A program made the position numbers and the translations under genes. The notes below the pieces were generated by a model, which worked only from the letters and a program-made list of their open reading frames with translations, ran no database searches and was not told where the DNA came from. A stretch of DNA of 52,765 nt from Candidatus Hodarchaeota archaeon (lineage in GTDB: Archaea > Asgardarchaeota > Heimdallarchaeia > Hodarchaeales > Hodarchaeaceae). The stretch lies in contig JAHQWW010000016.1 of assembly GCA_029856365.1 (NCBI GenBank), positions 1 through 52,765 of the forward strand, read 5' to 3'. This document shows, in pieces, positions 28,492 through 51,468 of the stretch. How positions within the stretch are numbered: position 1 is the first letter of the stretch; every line of letters begins with the position of its first letter.

Positions 28492-30207
28492 ATGAAAACA
28501 GCTAATTCTGACGAAGTTACAGCTCCCAAAGATTTTATTCGGAAAATTATTTCAGAAGATGTGGAAAACAATAAAAATAATGGACGTGTCCATACTCGTT
28601 TCCCTCCTGAACCCAATGGTTGGTTACACATTGGTCACGCGAAATCGATTTATCTTAATTTTAGTATCGCAAGTGAATTCAATGGACTATGTAATTTACG
28701 GTTTGATGATACAGATCCTACAAAAGAAAGCATGGAATATGTAGAGGCAATTGAAAAAGATATTCAATGGCTTGGGTTCGATTGGGAAGATAGACTCTAT
28801 TTTGCATCGGATTATTTTGAACAATTATATCAATTTGCTATAGAATTAATTAAAGCTGGAAAAGCTTATGTTTGTGATTTGAGCGTAGAAGAAATTAAAG
28901 CACAAAGGGGGACATCAGATGACCCAGGGATAGAAAGTCCATATCGTAATCGATCAGTGAAAGAAAATCTTGATCTATTTAAGAGGATGCTTAAGGGAGA
29001 GTTTAAAGATGGTTCTCGGGTGTTAAGAGCTAAAATTGACATGACATCTCCTAATATGCTAATGCGCGACCCAATAATGTACCGAATAAAGAGAGAACCG
29101 CATTATAGAACAGGAGATAAATGGATTATATACCCCAGTTATGATTATACACATGGACAATCAGACGCAATCGAAGGAATCACTCATTCACTCTGCTCAT
29201 TAGAATTTGAAACACATAGACCCCTATATAATTGGTATAGAGATCAGCTCCTTTCTTTAAACATGCTTAAACACTGTCCTGAACAAATTGAATTTTCACG
29301 ATTGAACTTAACATTCACTGTTATGAGTAAACGACGCTTATTGAAATTAGTTGAACGTGAGCAGGTTTCTGGCTGGGATGACCCTCGTATGCCCACACTT
29401 GCAGGTTTACGTAGACGTGGTTTTCCTCCAGTAGCTATCAGAAATTTCTTAACTAAAGTCGGAATATCAAAAAGAGAGAATTACATAGATGTTGGCCTTT
29501 TGGAAGCCTGCATCCGTGAAGAAATGGATAAAAATTGCAATCGTGTAATGGCTGTACTGCGTCCCCTAAAGGTTGTGATTCAGAACTATCCAGAGGATAA
29601 GGTTGAAGAACTGGATGCCCCTAATCATCCTAAAGATCCAAACAAAGGATCACGAAAAATACCATTTTCACAAATATTATACATTGAACGTGATGATTTT
29701 CTTGAAGAGCCCCCAAAGAGATTCTATCGGTTAGCACCCGGGAGAGAGGTTCGACTTCGATATGCATATTATATTAAATGTGTTGATGTAATTAAAGATA
29801 ATAAATCTGGAGAGATAATAGAATTACATGCATTATATGACCCTGAAACCAAAGGAGGATTTGCTCCTAATGGACGAAAAAGAGCTACTCTCCATTGGGT
29901 TTCAGCTGAACAAGCAATCAAAGCAGAAGCACGTTTATATGATAGGCTTTTCATCAAGGAGAATCCTTTGGAAAATGCAGACTTTGAAAAAAATTTGAAT
30001 CCCAAATCTTTAGAGAAGTTATCTTGTTATGTAGAACCGAGTCTTCTGGCCACAAAACCGGGGATGACGTATCAATTCGAACGTTTAGGATACTTTTGTG
30101 TTGATTCAGTGGATACAACACCTGAACAGCTAGTTTTTAATCGCACGATAACTTTACGTGACCCTTGGGCCAAGATTAAGAAAACTCAGAAAGTAAAAAA
30201 GAAATGA
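28492..30207 (+). CDS. glnS: Glutaminyl-tRNA synthetase (bacterial-type GlnRS)
   Basis: DFIRKII...[63 protein letters not shown] and [11 protein letters not shown], colinear with E. coli GlnRS as I recall it. Confidence 0.93.
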
Positions 30208-30279
30208 CAGCCCCGCCCAGAATCGAACTGGGGTTATCGGATTCAGAGTCCGAAGTGATAGCCGCTACACCACGGGGCT
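30208..30279 (-). tRNA. tRNA-Gln(CTG)
   Basis: AGCCCCG/CGGGGCT acceptor stem, TCGGA-CTCTGAA-TCCGA anticodon arm, CCCAG-TTCGATT-CTGGG T arm; G73; CCA not encoded. Confidence 0.95.
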
Positions 30280-30329: not shown

Positions 30330-30436
30330 CAGCCCCGCCCGGATTTGAACCGGGGTCGAGAGGGTCAAAGCCTCTTATGCTAGTCCACATTGCCTAATTG
30401 TGGATGATATCCACAACATGTCTACACCACGGGGCT
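30330..30436 (-). tRNA. tRNA-Gln(TTG) with 34-nt D-loop insertion/intron (about 30388-30421)
   Basis: Same acceptor stem, AGAGG-CTTTGAC-CCTCT anticodon arm, CCCGG-TTCAAAT-CCGGG T arm. Removing 34 nt after G15 gives a normal 73-nt cloverleaf. Confidence 0.88.
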
Positions 30437-35400: not shown

Positions 35401-38400
35401 TCATTCTTTCCTCTTGTCTATTTTCCTCCTTCTAATAGTTATTATACTAGTAACTAGAGTAAGAGCTAGTATAATATAATAAACTTCAATTCCAGGAGTT
35501 CTTTTCTCAGTTGTTGTTGTAGACGCAGTTATGTTAGGAATTGTTGTACTGATTATAGATTCAGTATAGAATCGGATATTTACTGGTGTGACATAACTGT
35601 CTATTATTATTCCGTCAAACGATACTGCAGCAATGGACGCTTTGACACTAAAATGGTTTGGAGGGTTACTAGAGGAGAATATATCAGAGAAGGTGAAAGG
35701 AATGGTGTGGTATTTAATACCAGTGGCGGCAGGATTGTAAAAGGTTACTTTATCAAGTGTATTGGAACTTTTATCCCAATAAATTTCCACTGAAACTTCC
35801 AGGGAGTAACTAATGACACGATTCACAACAATGGCAACATTTACCTCAATTCTATCAGCTATTCCATCCTCATTACCATCCCCCTGAACAATCCTAATGT
35901 GTCCGATAGACAAAGGTGGACTCATGAAAAACTCTCTAAGATCATATATTTGGTCTATAAATAATGGTTGAGTCAAGATTACAAACATTCCTTCATCATC
36001 AGAAGAATAAAGCGGGACTAAAAAGATTTCAGTTAAAGGTAATATATCTAAATCATCAGCTTTCTTAGAGCTTTTTAATAAATAATAATAAGGAATTAAA
36101 AATGAGATATTATGTATACCTTCTGGAAAATACTCTTGTGTTACTGATATAGTTCCTAATTGGGCCTCATAAAAATTATTCAATTGAGCATGAACTTTTG
36201 CTGAAAAATCATAATTCCCTTCTTGATAAATATTAATTAACAAAGAAATCACAATTGTATCAAGTTTTCCATCCTCATCTCTATCCTGGGCATCAGAGGT
36301 TATTGTTGACACTCGGATTGGTAGTTTGTAATTAAATGTACTTTTGTTTGCTTTAAAGTGTGGAATGTTTAAACTTGCTTTATAGACGGATTCTAAACTA
36401 AGAATAGAGATGTTCCCATAAATAGATTCGTCAAAAGCATTTCTTACAAGAGTTTTCCCAGAGAAGAAGAATGTAGGAGTGTAATTTCCTAGTTTATTTG
36501 CATTAATTATAGTATTATTTCTAATTCTTTGTACAGAATAGTCATTTCTTGAAAAAAGATCGACCCCCACATCATATGTTCCTACCTTGTTAATTCCGAT
36601 TGATATATCAATGAAAAGACCAGTATTATTCAGTATAATCTCTGGTACCTTATTGAAGAAAGCATCAACATACGGGGAATAGTCTGAGTAGTTAACACTC
36701 GGTAATACTCCTGCATGAAAAGCAAAAGCAATCAAAGACAAATTATTTTTTTGATAACGATGTTTAAGGCCATCTTGACGATCAGGGGAATAAATGCTTG
36801 CAGTATATATTTCAAGACTGCCAATATAACTAGAATTAAACAGATCCTCTGCTTCAATTTTGAGTTTAATGGTGTTCAAACCTAAAGTGAGGTTTTTTGT
36901 AAAATTAATAATTTTCAAGAAATCTCCTTGAATAGGTTCATAATCACGAATATCAAATTCAAAAATGACGTCAATTTGAGCTATCGAAGTTACTTCCCAT
37001 GAAACCTCAATTCCTGCGTCAGTGGAGTTTTCAAATTTCGTACTACCAAGAAATGAAGAAAACCATGCTACAGGAGATTCAAAATCAGAAGCAGTATACT
37101 CCTTGGTGATATAAGGAATATACAGGGTAAAATCATATTCCTCAAATGTGAAACCCATGCTTGGGAAAAAATATGGCCCTATTAGATTATTAGCTTTGAA
37201 TATTCTTGCATCAAAGTCAATTGAGAAGCTATTAATTCCTTGAACTAACATAACACTCTTTTCAGAGGAATTAATAAGGATCATTGTTTCATTAGGATAA
37301 CTGAATGGATGTCCTGTAAAAACGATAATTTTTGTATTAATTTTTGAAGTGATATCAATACTGAATCGAATTGCATCAAGCTTATCGTCACTGTCTGAAT
37401 CAATAGCGCGGTCCATTATTGTAAAACCGACAATTGAGTCAAAATCAGTAAGAGTTTCTTTGGGTATTTCATAGAATATAGGGATGTGATATCTATACCA
37501 CGATCCAAGAATACCAAATACTGCTAGGTCGCTTATATTTTGGAATTGTTGTACGAAAAACTCTATTGTAACAGTGGTTAAACCTGGTTGATAAACACTA
37601 AATGTCTCTATTTCATAAGCAAGAAGTTCGTTCTGATTCTCGTTCCAAATTGGAATACCAATTCCAAAAGCTCCAGTTTTTGAGAAACTGAATTCCAGTT
37701 CAATTTTAATCTTTTCAGGGAAACTATTTCCTCCAATATCTTCTTTTTCAATTTTATATGAGTTCAAACGATTATCAAGCTGGTTGAATGAGGTACAGTC
37801 ATAAATAGATGTTGTATAAACCTCTAAATTGTAATTCAAAAACAAAGAGAAATTATTTTTTCCTAAAGCCAACTCGTTTATGATATAAGATCCATTATAT
37901 CCTGATGATTCTAAAAGACCCCCTGGGACTGAGATACTTAAATTCTGGATACCTTCTGCTAAAGTTAAATTCAACCAGTCCCACATGAACACGTACCGCC
38001 CGAAATGATAATCAGGACGATTTTGAGCAATTGAATACCAAAAATTATACTTCCCTGCTTTTGAAACATTGACCTCAATTGAGAATGATAATTCATCAAA
38101 TAAACCATCTGAATCAAAATCGACAGGGTTACTTTCAATCTTTCCAGTTAAGGAGGCAGGTTGAAAAGAAGATAGTGCTCTTTCATCAGTTTCTTGAATG
38201 AGTAAAACATATTGTCCTGGTGTCTTATCTTCAATCCTTATGAAATAGTCCCCAGAACTTTGCGCTTTAAAGATAGCAATTTCAGGAAGATGCCCCTCTC
38301 TAGTACTTCGATTGAAAAAAGTTCCATTTTCGTCTGTAATAAAAAGATTAAGATTCCCTGTAAGGTTAGTAAGTTCAACAGAATAAACTTGATCCTTAAC

Positions 38401-40299
38401 AACTGGGAATGAATAAAGATCTCTATCCCATTTGTTTATTTCTCCAGTGATAGGGGTTCCAATGATCACAGGTAGTGCGCCACCATATGTTTCACCTGCG
38501 TCTGTTCCGCTATCCGCGTCATTACTTATTACATCAGGTTGAAGATAAAGGGTGGCATTGTAATAGATTTTACTTCCGTTTTTTACCATGATGGCGCCAT
38601 TCATGGCAGAATCAGGCATGGCAACTTTTACTCTAGCCCTAATCCATCCCTCAGTGTCCAAATCTACTAAAGAAGCATTGACATAAGGTTGTAGAGATGA
38701 AGTTATATTAAATGCATTAAAAGATTGGTTGAGAAATATGTCTAATTGATATTCAAATAATTCTCCTGGACTAAGTATTAATGGAGATGAGTTAATAAAG
38801 GATGGATATGCGAAAACTGATGGAGTTTGAAGATATTCAAGTGCAGCAGAAGCGTTTATTAGTCCTGCTCCCTGAACAAAAACATGCCTACCCATATCAG
38901 ATGCTGTACTCAACATTGCACTTCTAATTTCATCTATACTAGCCCCAAGTTCTTCTGAACGATTGAAAGAGAGAAGAAGGGCTGCTACACCTGCAACAGC
39001 TGGAGCTGACATAGAAGTTCCACTAGCAATGGTATATTGCCCTCCTGGTTCTAAAGAGAGAATGCCTCTTCCTGGTGCAACGATGTCTGGGTCAACAACG
39101 CCATTGGGAGAAGGACCCCTACTGGAAAAAAAAGCCACATCGTTATAGATATTTGATGCACCAACGGTAATTGATTTCGATTCCATCCCTGGGCTAGAAA
39201 TGCTGTTAGGTTCTGGTCCACTGTTCCCAGCAGAAGTGATAACCATGACATTATTTTCCCAAGCTGAATGTATGGCTTCCTCAAAAAGAGGATCTGCGTC
39301 TCCTGGTAAACCACCGAGGGACATTGAAACAATGTCAGCACCATTAGAAACAGCCCAATCTATCCCCTTCACGATCCAACTAATATATCCTCCGATTGTT
39401 TTGTCTAAAACTTTTCCATTCATAAGCTTAGCTCCAGGGGCTACTCCTATGAGGTAGCCATTACCTGCAGCAATACCGGCAACATGTGTACCGTGAAAAT
39501 GATCATCCATGGGATTGGTATCATTCATGCCATCATTGTCAAAATCAACGAATGAAGCTTCTAAGATGACCTTTGGATCTTTTGTTGAATCATCATTGTC
39601 AATATCATCTAAATCTGGATGTGTTTTATCAATACCAGTATCAAGAATAGCAATTGTTACTCCTGAACCATTTATCCCAAGGTTCTGCAAATATCGTGCT
39701 CCAATAATATTTTCTGAAGGAAATATAGAAATATCAAAAGAATTCCAGTCTTCTTCTATGAAAGGAATGTATTCATCTAAAAATACCCCTTTTACGCCAG
39801 GGAGTGATTTTACATCATTCACTGATTCTAGTGAGGTTTGCATAATGGCAATCGGCATAGAGTTTAAGATTTCGAAGTCATGTTTGGCAAGTACTGGATT
39901 TCTCATCTCTTGAAAGGAATTAAAGAAAACTAAGAGTTTAACTTGCTTTTTGTCCCATAAAGATCTGGGTGTTGTTTGGAATATTTCTTCTAATGATCTA
40001 GAAAGGTGTATATGTTTTTGTTGAGAAGTTTCAAGATATTGAGGCAATGTTTTCCCTTCTTTTAATTTGCTATAATTATTCCACGCATTATAATCTTCAG
40101 AAGGATTATTTACTTCATTATTAATATCAATTGAAGGCACTAGATCATTTATTATTGAGTTAACTTGTGATGGTATCTGTTTTTGCAAAAGAATTATTGG
40201 TACGAAGACATGTGTAAATACAATAACAATTAATAAAAATGAGAACCTCCTCTTGAACTTATTATACAAAGTCACAATGTCATTCTTTCTATGCATCAA
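35401..40299 (-). CDS. Large surface-anchored S8 (subtilisin-like) serine protease
   Basis: Catalytic triad ILDTG / HGTHVAG / GTSMSAP, oxyanion AGN, PPC-like domain, repeated DxDxDG beta modules, Thr-rich linker + TPG + TM + basic tail. Confidence 0.92.
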   Translation of the reverse strand: MMHRKNDIVTLYNKFKRRFSFLLIVIVFTHVFVPIILLQKQIPSQVNSIINDLVPSIDINNEVNNPSEDYNAWNNYSKLKEGKTLPQYLETSQQKHIHLSRSLEEIFQTTPRSLWDKKQVKLLVFFNSFQEMRNPVLAKHDFEILNSMPIAIMQTSLESVNDVKSLPGVKGVFLDEYIPFIEEDWNSFDISIFPSENIIGARYLQNLGINGSGVTIAILDTGIDKTHPDLDDIDNDDSTKDPKVILEASFVDFDNDGMNDTNPMDDHFHGTHVAGIAAGNGYLIGVAPGAKLMNGKVLDKTIGGYISWIVKGIDWAVSNGADIVSMSLGGLPGDADPLFEEAIHSAWENNVMVITSAGNSGPEPNSISSPGMESKSITVGASNIYNDVAFFSSRGPSPNGVVDPDIVAPGRGILSLEPGGQYTIASGTSMSAPAVAGVAALLLSFNRSEELGASIDEIRSAMLSTASDMGRHVFVQGAGLINASAALEYLQTPSVFAYPSFINSSPLILSPGELFEYQLDIFLNQSFNAFNITSSLQPYVNASLVDLDTEGWIRARVKVAMPDSAMNGAIMVKNGSKIYYNATLYLQPDVISNDADSGTDAGETYGGALPVIIGTPITGEINKWDRDLYSFPVVKDQVYSVELTNLTGNLNLFITDENGTFFNRSTREGHLPEIAIFKAQSSGDYFIRIEDKTPGQYVLLIQETDERALSSFQPASLTGKIESNPVDFDSDGLFDELSFSIEVNVSKAGKYNFWYSIAQNRPDYHFGRYVFMWDWLNLTLAEGIQNLSISVPGGLLESSGYNGSYIINELALGKNNFSLFLNYNLEVYTTSIYDCTSFNQLDNRLNSYKIEKEDIGGNSFPEKIKIELEFSFSKTGAFGIGIPIWNENQNELLAYEIETFSVYQPGLTTVTIEFFVQQFQNISDLAVFGILGSWYRYHIPIFYEIPKETLTDFDSIVGFTIMDRAIDSDSDDKLDAIRFSIDITSKINTKIIVFTGHPFSYPNETMILINSSEKSVMLVQGINSFSIDFDARIFKANNLIGPYFFPSMGFTFEEYDFTLYIPYITKEYTASDFESPVAWFSSFLGSTKFENSTDAGIEVSWEVTSIAQIDVIFEFDIRDYEPIQGDFLKIINFTKNLTLGLNTIKLKIEAEDLFNSSYIGSLEIYTASIYSPDRQDGLKHRYQKNNLSLIAFAFHAGVLPSVNYSDYSPYVDAFFNKVPEIILNNTGLFIDISIGINKVGTYDVGVDLFSRNDYSVQRIRNNTIINANKLGNYTPTFFFSGKTLVRNAFDESIYGNISILSLESVYKASLNIPHFKANKSTFNYKLPIRVSTITSDAQDRDEDGKLDTIVISLLINIYQEGNYDFSAKVHAQLNNFYEAQLGTISVTQEYFPEGIHNISFLIPYYYLLKSSKKADDLDILPLTEIFLVPLYSSDDEGMFVILTQPLFIDQIYDLREFFMSPPLSIGHIRIVQGDGNEDGIADRIEVNVAIVVNRVISYSLEVSVEIYWDKSSNTLDKVTFYNPAATGIKYHTIPFTFSDIFSSSNPPNHFSVKASIAAVSFDGIIIDSYVTPVNIRFYTESIISTTIPNITASTTTTEKRTPGIEVYYIILALTLVTSIITIRRRKIDKRKE

Positions 40300-50575: not shown

Positions 50576-50847
50576 ATGGTCACATATATTTCTATAAATT
50601 TAAATTTAATTTTCCTTTATTCGTATTAGATTGAGAAAATCGCTCTAGGAACTCCTTTAAGTTTTGTTGGATACTTTGATTATATTTGTTGCAAAAATAA
50701 TCTGTATTTTAACAACCCATTTGCTCTTTTACAATTGATTCATATAAAAATTAGATGATTTATGGGAAAATAATTCTATTCGGTAAGAGTTATAAAATTC
50801 TTTCTCAGCAATTACATATTTTCATGATGAAAAGTGGTGACTTTAGA

Positions 50848-51468
50848 ATGAAGACAAATCAAATTGTAAGAATAATAATTCCTTTGGTACTCCTTTTAGG
50901 GGCTGCTACTACTTTTTTTGTGGCAGTTCTGGGGAACCAACAGGCAAATACCTCAACTGAGGAAATCCAAGAGTCGAACGCAACTACAAGTAGTTTTGAA
51001 ATGTACCTATTTGTAGAAGGCATCCCTGGAGAAGCTACAGAAAAAAATCACGAAGATTGGATTGATGTACTCGCTTATTCCCATAATATCCAGACTCCAT
51101 ATGAAGTAGGCACAGGACGAAGTGCAGGAAGCGTAGAAAACGCCCCCCTTCGAATCACTAAGATGTTAGATAAGTCATCTCCCAAATTATACGAAGCTTG
51201 TGCTGATGGAAATGTGATTCCTTTAGTTGAACTAGATTTCTGCATGACTAATATAGACCGAGATGTGTTTTACAACATTGAACTTCAAAATGCCAGAATC
51301 GTGTCCGTCCAAGACTTTGGAGTGGTATCAGGAGACTATCCGACCGAAACAGTTTCTTTTACATATGAAAAAGTAAGATGGACATATACAGAGTACGACG
51401 CCGCGGGAAATCCAAAAGGAGATGTGCAATCAGATTGGATCTATTGGGCTGATGAACCCGCTATTTAA
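50848..51468 (+). CDS. hcp: Hcp (type VI secretion tube protein family) domain with N-terminal signal/TM helix
   Basis: MYLFVEGIPGE...HEDWIDVLAYSH...ITKMLDKSSPKLYEAC..G...YNIELQNARIVSV...ETVSFTYEKVRWTY. Start moved to ATG 50848 after GGTGA. Confidence 0.88.
   Translation: MKTNQIVRIIIPLVLLLGAATTFFVAVLGNQQANTSTEEIQESNATTSSFEMYLFVEGIPGEATEKNHEDWIDVLAYSHNIQTPYEVGTGRSAGSVENAPLRITKMLDKSSPKLYEACADGNVIPLVELDFCMTNIDRDVFYNIELQNARIVSVQDFGVVSGDYPTETVSFTYEKVRWTYTEYDAAGNPKGDVQSDWIYWADEPAI

Follow-up and report, generated by a model that had tools for sequence, protein, structure and literature searches.

What use an archaeon might make of Hcp, the protein of the inner tube of the bacterial type VI secretion system (T6SS), when that Hcp is preceded by what looks like an export or membrane leader is the question raised by an open reading frame (ORF) in the DNA examined here, a stretch of 52,765 nucleotides ("the window") of contig JAHQWW010000016.1 from a Candidatus Hodarchaeota archaeon. 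Hcp is regarded as diagnostic of the contractile injection systems of bacteria; it is overwhelmingly bacterial in distribution and in its canonical form it acts in the cytoplasm and is treated as leaderless. The best reading of our results is that the archaeal ORF, at positions 50848-51468, represents a T6SS-independent, extracytoplasmic use of the Hcp fold, because its leader is conserved and no contractile core gene was detected. Taken as a whole, the view that this Hcp is exported, independent of a T6SS and linked to a partner protein encoded just downstream is one that we consider probable, if some way from certain.

The encoded protein is, by its sequence and its modelled structure, a genuine Hcp in an archaeon. 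The family PF05638 (T6SS_HCP) is matched by residues 53-180 over the full length of the hidden Markov model (HMM; model positions 1-129 of 129, 119.9 bits with a cut-off of 23.5, E 1.1e-34), and the 206-residue protein scores 96.1 bits with TIGR03344 (cut-off 58.9). Among proteins of solved structure the closest in sequence are 7FCF (E 5e-31) and 4W64 (E 5e-21), both of them Hcps of a T6SS, and the domain is 30-35% identical in sequence to the solved Hcps. An AlphaFold2 (AF2) model with 18 orthologs in its alignment has predicted local distance difference test (pLDDT) values of 80-96 over residues 49-202, except in an extended loop at residues 83-96; in Foldseek comparisons this model matched 4W64, 7FCF, 3EAA and 1Y12 at E values from 2.8e-15 to 1e-13, with template modelling (TM) scores, taken on the target, of 0.72-0.91 for 4W64, 7FCF and 1Y12.

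The ATG at 50848 is, by comparison with orthologs, the true start of the protein, because five orthologous loci have an in-frame stop immediately 5' of the equivalent ATG and because a GGTGA box of Shine-Dalgarno type stands before it at a spacing that is kept in the orthologs. Longer ORFs from ATG 50755 or ATG 50824 are ruled out by the in-frame stops in orthologs, and a start at Met 51001 is ruled out by the 51 codons that precede it (it is Met 52 of the protein), which are kept as protein in ~30 database orthologs. The 90 nucleotides at 50758-50847 are conserved at the nucleotide level between species with proteins that are just 50-60% identical, and the elements GGTAAG-N-TTTAAAAAATTC, TTACATATTTTCAT and GGTGA were recognised there in comparison with orthologous loci that we designate L011-L014, L022, L023, L025 and L026; the first of these blocks lies at an equal distance in L011-L014, L022, L023 and L026. 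Such conservation speaks for a promoter and a 5' leader kept between species, and perhaps for regulation, and a TATA-like box in the conserved block (Table 1) would be the putative promoter of the Hcp gene and of the partner gene that follows it.

Between the start codon and the Hcp domain lie a leader and a linker of very different character (Table 1). Among 16 orthologs the mean pairwise identity is 70% for residues 1-8 and likewise 70% for residues 9-29; it falls to 55% in the Hcp domain and to 43% in the linker, which is disordered in the AF2 model. The leader is present in all 17 of the Asgard loci inspected; its hydrophobic part measures 18-21 residues in each Asgard clade, although the sequence itself may differ, and a sequon at the position of N34 is shared by 13 of 17 aligned orthologs. 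Judged from helix length, charge distribution and conservation, the likelier of two possibilities is that the leader is a retained type II signal-anchor rather than a cleaved signal peptide, since it is more conserved than the Hcp domain, which would be unusual for a signal peptide that is removed. An N-in/C-out orientation is predicted because the charges obey the positive-inside rule, K2 and R8 standing on the N-terminal side of the helix and acidic or polar residues only on its C-terminal side. Residues P12 and G18 and a patch of small residues at 18-22 we read as signs that the leader might have helix-helix contacts of its own. A class III (type IV pilin-like) signal was considered and rejected, there being no [KR]-[GA] site before the hydrophobic stretch.

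The initial annotation of this locus, made from the letters of the sequence, had described a complete Hcp domain in an archaeon, preceded by a basic-hydrophobic N-terminal helix and by a linker with NTS and NAT sequons. The helix and linker are as described, the domain is confirmed by PF05638, TIGR03344 and the AF2/Foldseek comparisons (the search with the T6SS_HCP model, which the annotation had proposed, gave the full-model match cited above), and the export or membrane leader that it had assigned to this Hcp is translated and conserved in ~30 orthologs. The same evidence disposes of the annotation's own proviso that translation might start at Met 51001, which would have left the protein with no signal.

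Is there a contractile machine in these cells to which the Hcp might belong? All 22 genomes in the genus, two of them single-contig assemblies and one 99% complete, were searched for core families, a set that did not include TssB (PF05591); none of them had a match to TssC/VipB (PF05943), VgrG/gpD (PF05954), gp25/TssE (PF04965), TssF (PF05947) or PAAR (PF05488) at E<=0.01-0.1, or to phage sheath (PF04984) or the T4 gp19-type tube (PF06841). The organism's own genome (83.6% complete) gave no match to PF05943, PF05954, PF04984 or PF04965 at a laxer threshold either, and the same searches found their targets in E. coli and other reference genomes that served as positive controls. Hcp apart, they brought to light no recognisable part of a T6SS, of an extracellular contractile injection system or of a myophage tail. 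In comparison with the bacterial Hcp/TssD proteins (4W64, 7FCF, 1Y12), the archaeal protein has the full domain match and the same beta-barrel fold, but it differs from them in its conserved N-terminal membrane helix and linker, in its pairing with a surface protein that is probably sorted by a sortase and in the lack, within the genus, of TssC, VgrG, TssE/F, PAAR or any other tail gene searched for (TssB not being one of these); it could not assemble inside a cytoplasmic sheath.

The Hcp gene has a constant companion in the partner gene, which begins 35 base pairs downstream. The partner, of 242 residues, is predicted to begin with a signal peptide (ending in AFA/D) and to continue with a beta-sandwich domain of ~145 residues and a stalk of Ser/Thr/Glu; an SGF motif, a transmembrane helix and an RKK tail follow. 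A homolog of it was found directly 3' of Hcp in 11 of the 13 loci first checked and in two divergent loci of a family of another class (f19). The partner family is confined to Asgard data, where it shares its contigs with the Hcp orthologs: with one genome taken per species of the phylum, the partner was found in 21 of 399 genomes, every one of them Hcp-bearing. Within the genus, 18 genomes have both genes and four have neither, with matching copy numbers and adjacent coordinates. The organism's own genome has a second, divergent cassette on another contig (Table 1), with ~30% identity for both genes. We take the Hcp and partner genes to be co-transcribed and, on this comparative evidence, to have been inherited and duplicated as a unit in Asgard archaea of the Heimdall/Hodarchaeales type.

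In a tree of the domain, the Asgard Hcps form one group (Shimodaira-Hasegawa-like support 94) with two subclades, both of them leader-bearing and partner-linked. The tree of the partner, which was made with crude trimming, is unresolved, and the sister pairs common to both trees are only the window with L013, L009 with L010 and L002 with L007. The deep branches of the domain tree are unsupported, and we claim no donor of the Hcp from it; a search of genome contigs for related loci gave eight Asgard and three bacterial loci, too few to name a donor. As separate observations, a partial match to the partner (model positions 91-238) occurs at G065:C1:1008590-1009063, not beside any Hcp gene, and two positions in another genome (G074:C27:238927-239148 and 242489-242707) lie in frames of ~1070 residues that share just the C-terminal stalk and sorting region of the partner.

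The initial annotation had noted the absence of sheath, VgrG and baseplate genes from the window, and the window does indeed lack them; the wider search that it had proposed, for vgrG, phage-tail and tssB/C genes, found none of those looked for (tssC among them, TssB excepted) in the organism's own genome or in its 21 congeners. Its suggestion of a non-T6SS use of the Hcp fold gains support from the leader together with the lack of core genes in the 22 genomes. The word "orphan", by which it had characterised the Hcp gene, holds with regard to the T6SS and has to be given up otherwise, the Hcp gene being the first of a conserved cassette of two.

The C-terminal region of the partner points to sorting at the cell surface. 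The Heimdall-CTERM model NF045529 matches 13 of 22 partner orthologs (best E 1.8e-4); the copy in the window is not among these, and its own tail (SGF, hydrophobic helix, RKK) agrees with those of the other orthologs by eye and in alignment. The genome encodes two heimdallarchaeosortases, scoring 251.6 and 261.4 bits with NF045528 (cut-off 130), which are likely to process Heimdall-CTERM proteins such as the partner. Proteins of the PGF-CTERM type are cleaved and re-anchored by ArtA. By analogy with these, and because of the Heimdall-CTERM matches among the orthologs and the presence of the two sortases, cleavage at the C-terminal helix followed by re-anchoring is the most likely fate of the partner. 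The partner resembles the PGF-CTERM/ArtA-type glycoproteins (represented here by NF045529/NF045528) in its S/P-G-F motif, transmembrane helix, basic tail and Ser/Thr stalk, with cognate sortases present, and differs from them in having a globular domain that belongs to no Pfam family and in its strict pairing with Hcp.

The AF2 model of the partner's globular domain is a beta-sandwich with pLDDT >90 over residues 35-175. No match to the domain was found in Pfam at E<=1 or, by Foldseek, in the PDB at E<=0.001. Comparison by VIA-align with fold types that included CBM9, the gamma subunit of ethylbenzene dehydrogenase and the cytochrome domain of cellobiose dehydrogenase gave Z values of 7.0 (1ULV), 6.1 (2IVF_C), 5.6 (1I82, a CBM9), 5.4 (7B04_C) and 5.2 (1D7C), all of them <8, with 4QI6 also among the matches of the DOMON/CBM9 group (Z 5-6); comparison with the CBM9 clusters of the Atlas gave TM scores of 0.38-0.47. 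The models thus hint, weakly, at a domain like DOMON or CBM9. Residues W102, W114, H122, F134 and E136 are invariant or nearly so among the partner orthologs and, speculatively, would suit a sugar- or cofactor-binding site. A 1:1 complex prediction of Hcp residues 48-206 with partner residues 32-180, made with alignments, reached a score of 0.20 where the mark was 0.32, and weighs neither way on binding.

An exhaustive phmmer search over 1.84 billion cluster representatives places the archaeal protein in a wider setting. An N-terminal hydrophobic leader is found in 77 of the best 150 representatives, so a leader-bearing Hcp would not be a peculiarity of archaea; in many of these relatives a classical AxA site directly precedes the Hcp domain. 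Multi-domain chains account for 50 of the same 150, and the modal number of Hcp domains per chain is exactly six (24 representatives with six by HMM count, and more by phmmer). Since six domains per chain are what a closed Hcp ring would need, these proteins look like covalently closed, single-chain Hcp rings, which favours a ring rather than a sheath-driven tube as the working unit in the exported branch. The three multi-Hcp contexts that were inspected contain no T6SS genes. The exported multi-Hcp chains (e.g., P0039-P0053) are the closest sequence neighbours of the Asgard domain and share with it export and the absence of T6SS genes in those contexts; they differ from the anchored Asgard monomers in having six domains in one polypeptide, in being mostly bacterial and in having no gene for a DOMON-like partner. 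In the literature we found no published description of the archaeal Hcp cassette family or of exported multi-Hcp chains, and these findings together point to a sizeable, undescribed branch of Hcp proteins that would work outside the cell without a sheath.

Several further features of these relatives may be recorded. The six-domain proteins are metagenomic chains of 1000-2200 residues (P0039-P0053, P0057-P0059 and others, with loci L004, L005, L006 and L032), of which at least one (P0042) carries dockerin and Ig-like domains and another (P0039) an Ig-like domain. Many of the six-domain chains have a leader of the LE-x-R-x-LL type, which we take to be Planctomycete-like. Chains with two or three Hcp domains also occur, as do anchored chains with seven or eight (P0043, P0191). 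A subgroup of the leader-bearing Hcps with a single domain (P0082, P0095, P0096, P0104, P0115 and P0147) has a conserved extension inserted after the leader and before the Hcp domain, with approximately the sequence GGSLEP-x-APP-STMHTL-[DE][DE]-IY.

A sequence of events that would account for the archaeal cassette can be outlined as follows. The leader would be inserted co-translationally by Sec/YidC, and the Hcp domain would fold at the external surface of the cytoplasmic membrane. The usual Hcp ring of six copies would then form, with all of the N-termini on one face, lying flat over the membrane and held there by six linkers of ~20 residues, while the six conserved transmembrane helices would cluster beneath it. 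By analogy with other Hcps, the Hodarchaeales protein presumably does form such a hexamer, and a fusion at its N-terminus should be compatible with the ring, because engineered fusions of Hcp1 have been solved with the passenger N-terminal to Hcp1 (GspE-Hcp1, 4KSR and 4KSS; Vps4-Hcp1, 6AP1; TrwK-Hcp1, 7O42). These fusions have the same order of passenger, linker and C-terminal Hcp, and they show that the ring accepts appendages at the N-terminus and gathers them six-fold; they are artificial fusions with ATPases in the cytoplasm, whereas the passenger of the archaeal protein is a natural single transmembrane helix. The partner, released from its C-terminal helix by heimdallarchaeosortase, would be lipid-anchored on its long stalk and would act with the ring.

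What the two proteins might do together is suggested by the T6SS, in which Hcp is the receptor and chaperone for small effectors encoded beside hcp and holds such cargo in its lumen. Like these effectors, the partner has a small globular domain (~16 kDa), of a size compatible with the lumen, and is encoded directly after hcp; unlike them, it has a signal peptide of its own and a C-terminal sorting signal, with neither a toxin-like domain nor an immunity gene. The domain, being within the size range of lumen cargo, may be held, capped or presented by the ring, in the role of a head that binds a sugar or a cofactor. Equally, the ring may form a hub resembling a pore, or it may be a structural component of the envelope. 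The working assembly would be a single ring with its partner and not a long tube; with an anchor retained on each subunit, stacking into a long tube would be unlikely. Taken by themselves, these details of ring and cargo are doubtful, and we put them forward as a tentative picture.

Some of our results weigh against this overall interpretation and deserve to be set out together. A site of the form V-x-G/N after the leader helix could be cleaved, and the N34 sequon lies ~5 residues past the helix, which, should the helix remain in the membrane, is close for oligosaccharyltransferase. The absence of contractile genes is Pfam-based, so a very divergent archaeal machine could be missed, and most of the genomes are incomplete metagenome-assembled genomes. 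The assignment of the partner fold is weak (best Z 7.0). Finally, three Hcp genes of the sister family f6 have the leader with no partner detected. These are at L035 (G051:C249), L036 (G049:C354) and L016 (G050:C68; partly masked), none with a recognisable partner downstream; L016, the one included in the tree, branches outside the main Asgard clade among other leader-bearing relatives and is possibly a separate acquisition.

The alternative that survives best, although we regard it as unlikely, is that the leader is a Sec signal peptide after all, and that its removal releases soluble rings that stack into an extracellular tube or filament held by the stalked, anchored partner, which corresponds to the filament or adhesin that the initial annotation had suggested. 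The small-residue site (V-L-G/N) after the helix would fit cleavage, in many of the bacterial relatives a short signal peptide of classical type, ending in AxA, does stand immediately ahead of the Hcp domain, the capacity of Hcp to polymerise into tubes is established for the T6SS (e.g., 5MXN/5OJQ), and the anchored partner could serve as the base of a filament. Yet the length of the hydrophobic stretch in every Asgard clade exceeds that of typical h-regions, the leader is better conserved than the domain that would be left as the mature protein, the putative site is itself unconserved (with N or T at position -1 in some orthologs), and the single-chain relatives with six domains point to a closed ring rather than to a tube. 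Less probable still is a more elaborate form of the anchored ring, in which the ring would be an extracellular hexamerisation platform that bundles the six transmembrane helices into a channel or signalling hub, with the partner plugging, gating or loading the vestibule of the lumen; if true, archaea would have in it a new class of pore or receptor at their surface, derived from the fold of an injection tube.

Two further explanations deny the Hcp domain its place outside the cell, or any function at all. The helix might hold a cytoplasmic Hcp against the inner side of the membrane, e.g., as the remnant dock of an injection system that has been lost or is not recognised; this would keep the domain in the cytoplasm, where canonical Hcp acts, but we find it very improbable in the face of the charge layout (K2 and R8 before the helix, acidic and polar residues after it), the conserved N-x-S/T sequon that follows the helix, the predicted export and sortase-dependent sorting of the obligate partner, and the lack of core genes of a contractile injection system in the 22 genomes. 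That the gene is a functionless, decaying leftover of an acquired bacterial T6SS or prophage tail, or lies on a contaminating bacterial contig, is scarcely credible: the bacterial bias of Hcp and its patchy distribution in Asgard archaea (26 of 399 genomes) would fit, but the ORFs are intact, at 48-87% identity, both among the congeners (17 of 21) and on two closed chromosomes from Heimdall archaea, the promoter, Shine-Dalgarno box, leader and partner are all conserved, the gene pair has been duplicated and retained, and the contig carries archaeal housekeeping genes in synteny with CP070695.1.

The preferred reading, that of an exported and partner-linked Hcp, can also be viewed against the distribution of the gene and its chromosomal surroundings. 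The 26 genomes with PF05638, counted at one genome per species of the phylum, include the 17 congeners just mentioned, three of 12 in the sister family f6, four of 14 in family f19 and one other genome. The orthologs with names come from Promethearchaeota, Heimdallarchaeota and Hodarchaeota/Hodarchaeales metagenome-assembled genomes and from the closed chromosomes CP070695.1 and CP070760.1; some of the records carry Hermod- or Thorarchaeota labels. The window contains chromosomal genes for glutaminyl-tRNA synthetase (GlnRS), phosphoglycerate mutase, a threonine-synthase-like PALP protein, ABC transporters and pirin, and contamination or a mobile element is unlikely because of these housekeeping genes and the partial synteny with CP070695.1. 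The features of the cassette and of the related genes in the same genome are listed in Table 1.

Table 1. Positions of the Hcp-partner cassette and its putative control elements in the window, and of related genes on other contigs of the same genome (G, C and L, our designations for genomes, contigs and loci)
Feature	Position	Strand	Remarks
TATA-like box TTATAAAATT	50790-50799	+	~55 nt 5' of ATG, inside conserved block, as in all close orthologs; putative archaeal promoter
GGTGA Shine-Dalgarno-like box	50836-50840	+	7 nt 5' of ATG; spacing kept in orthologs
Hcp ORF	50848-51468	+	Intact, 206 aa
Leader, residues 1-29	50848-50934	+	Basic n-region (K2, R8), then 21-residue hydrophobic helix (residues 9-29)
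Linker, residues 30-50	50935-50997	+	Asn/Gln/Ser/Thr/Glu, acidic/polar; N-glycosylation sequons N34-T-S and N44-A-T
Complete Hcp (TssD) domain, residues 51-206 and stop codon	50998-51468	+	PF05638, TIGR03344, PDB matches, AF2/Foldseek
Partner gene, 242 aa	51504-52232	+	35 bp 3' of Hcp gene; conserved
Second cassette, contig C97 (G000)	Hcp paralog L002:1339-1962; partner paralog L002:1984-2823		Follows large surface protein with C-terminal anchor
Heimdallarchaeosortase paralogs (G000)	C17 L018:1111-1890; C118 L019:1111-1878		NF045528

Elsewhere in the window, a gene for a synthetase of the GlnRS/GluRS class (28492-30207, + strand) adjoins tRNA-Gln(CTG) (30208-30279, - strand), and ~50 nt past this tRNA there is a weak tRNA match (30330-30394, - strand; 29.6 bits, just above the gathering score) which may be interrupted. 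A subtilase of 1631 residues with Peptidase_S8 and PPC domains (35401-40299, - strand) is probably a large secreted or surface protease.

The Asgard lineage to which the window belongs includes the archaea closest to eukaryotes, and to our knowledge the surface structures of the Heimdall/Hodarchaeales archaea are almost unknown. Such structures bear on models of the interaction between host and partner in eukaryogenesis. In archaea with no contractile genes detected, the Hcp fold is conserved and duplicated, and it goes together with a membrane helix and with a surface partner that is predicted to be sorted; the pair constitutes a defined, easily expressed surface module of two proteins that would be a target for structural work and for cryo-electron tomography. 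A ring-forming fold seems to have been reused in these organisms as a two-protein device of the cell surface.
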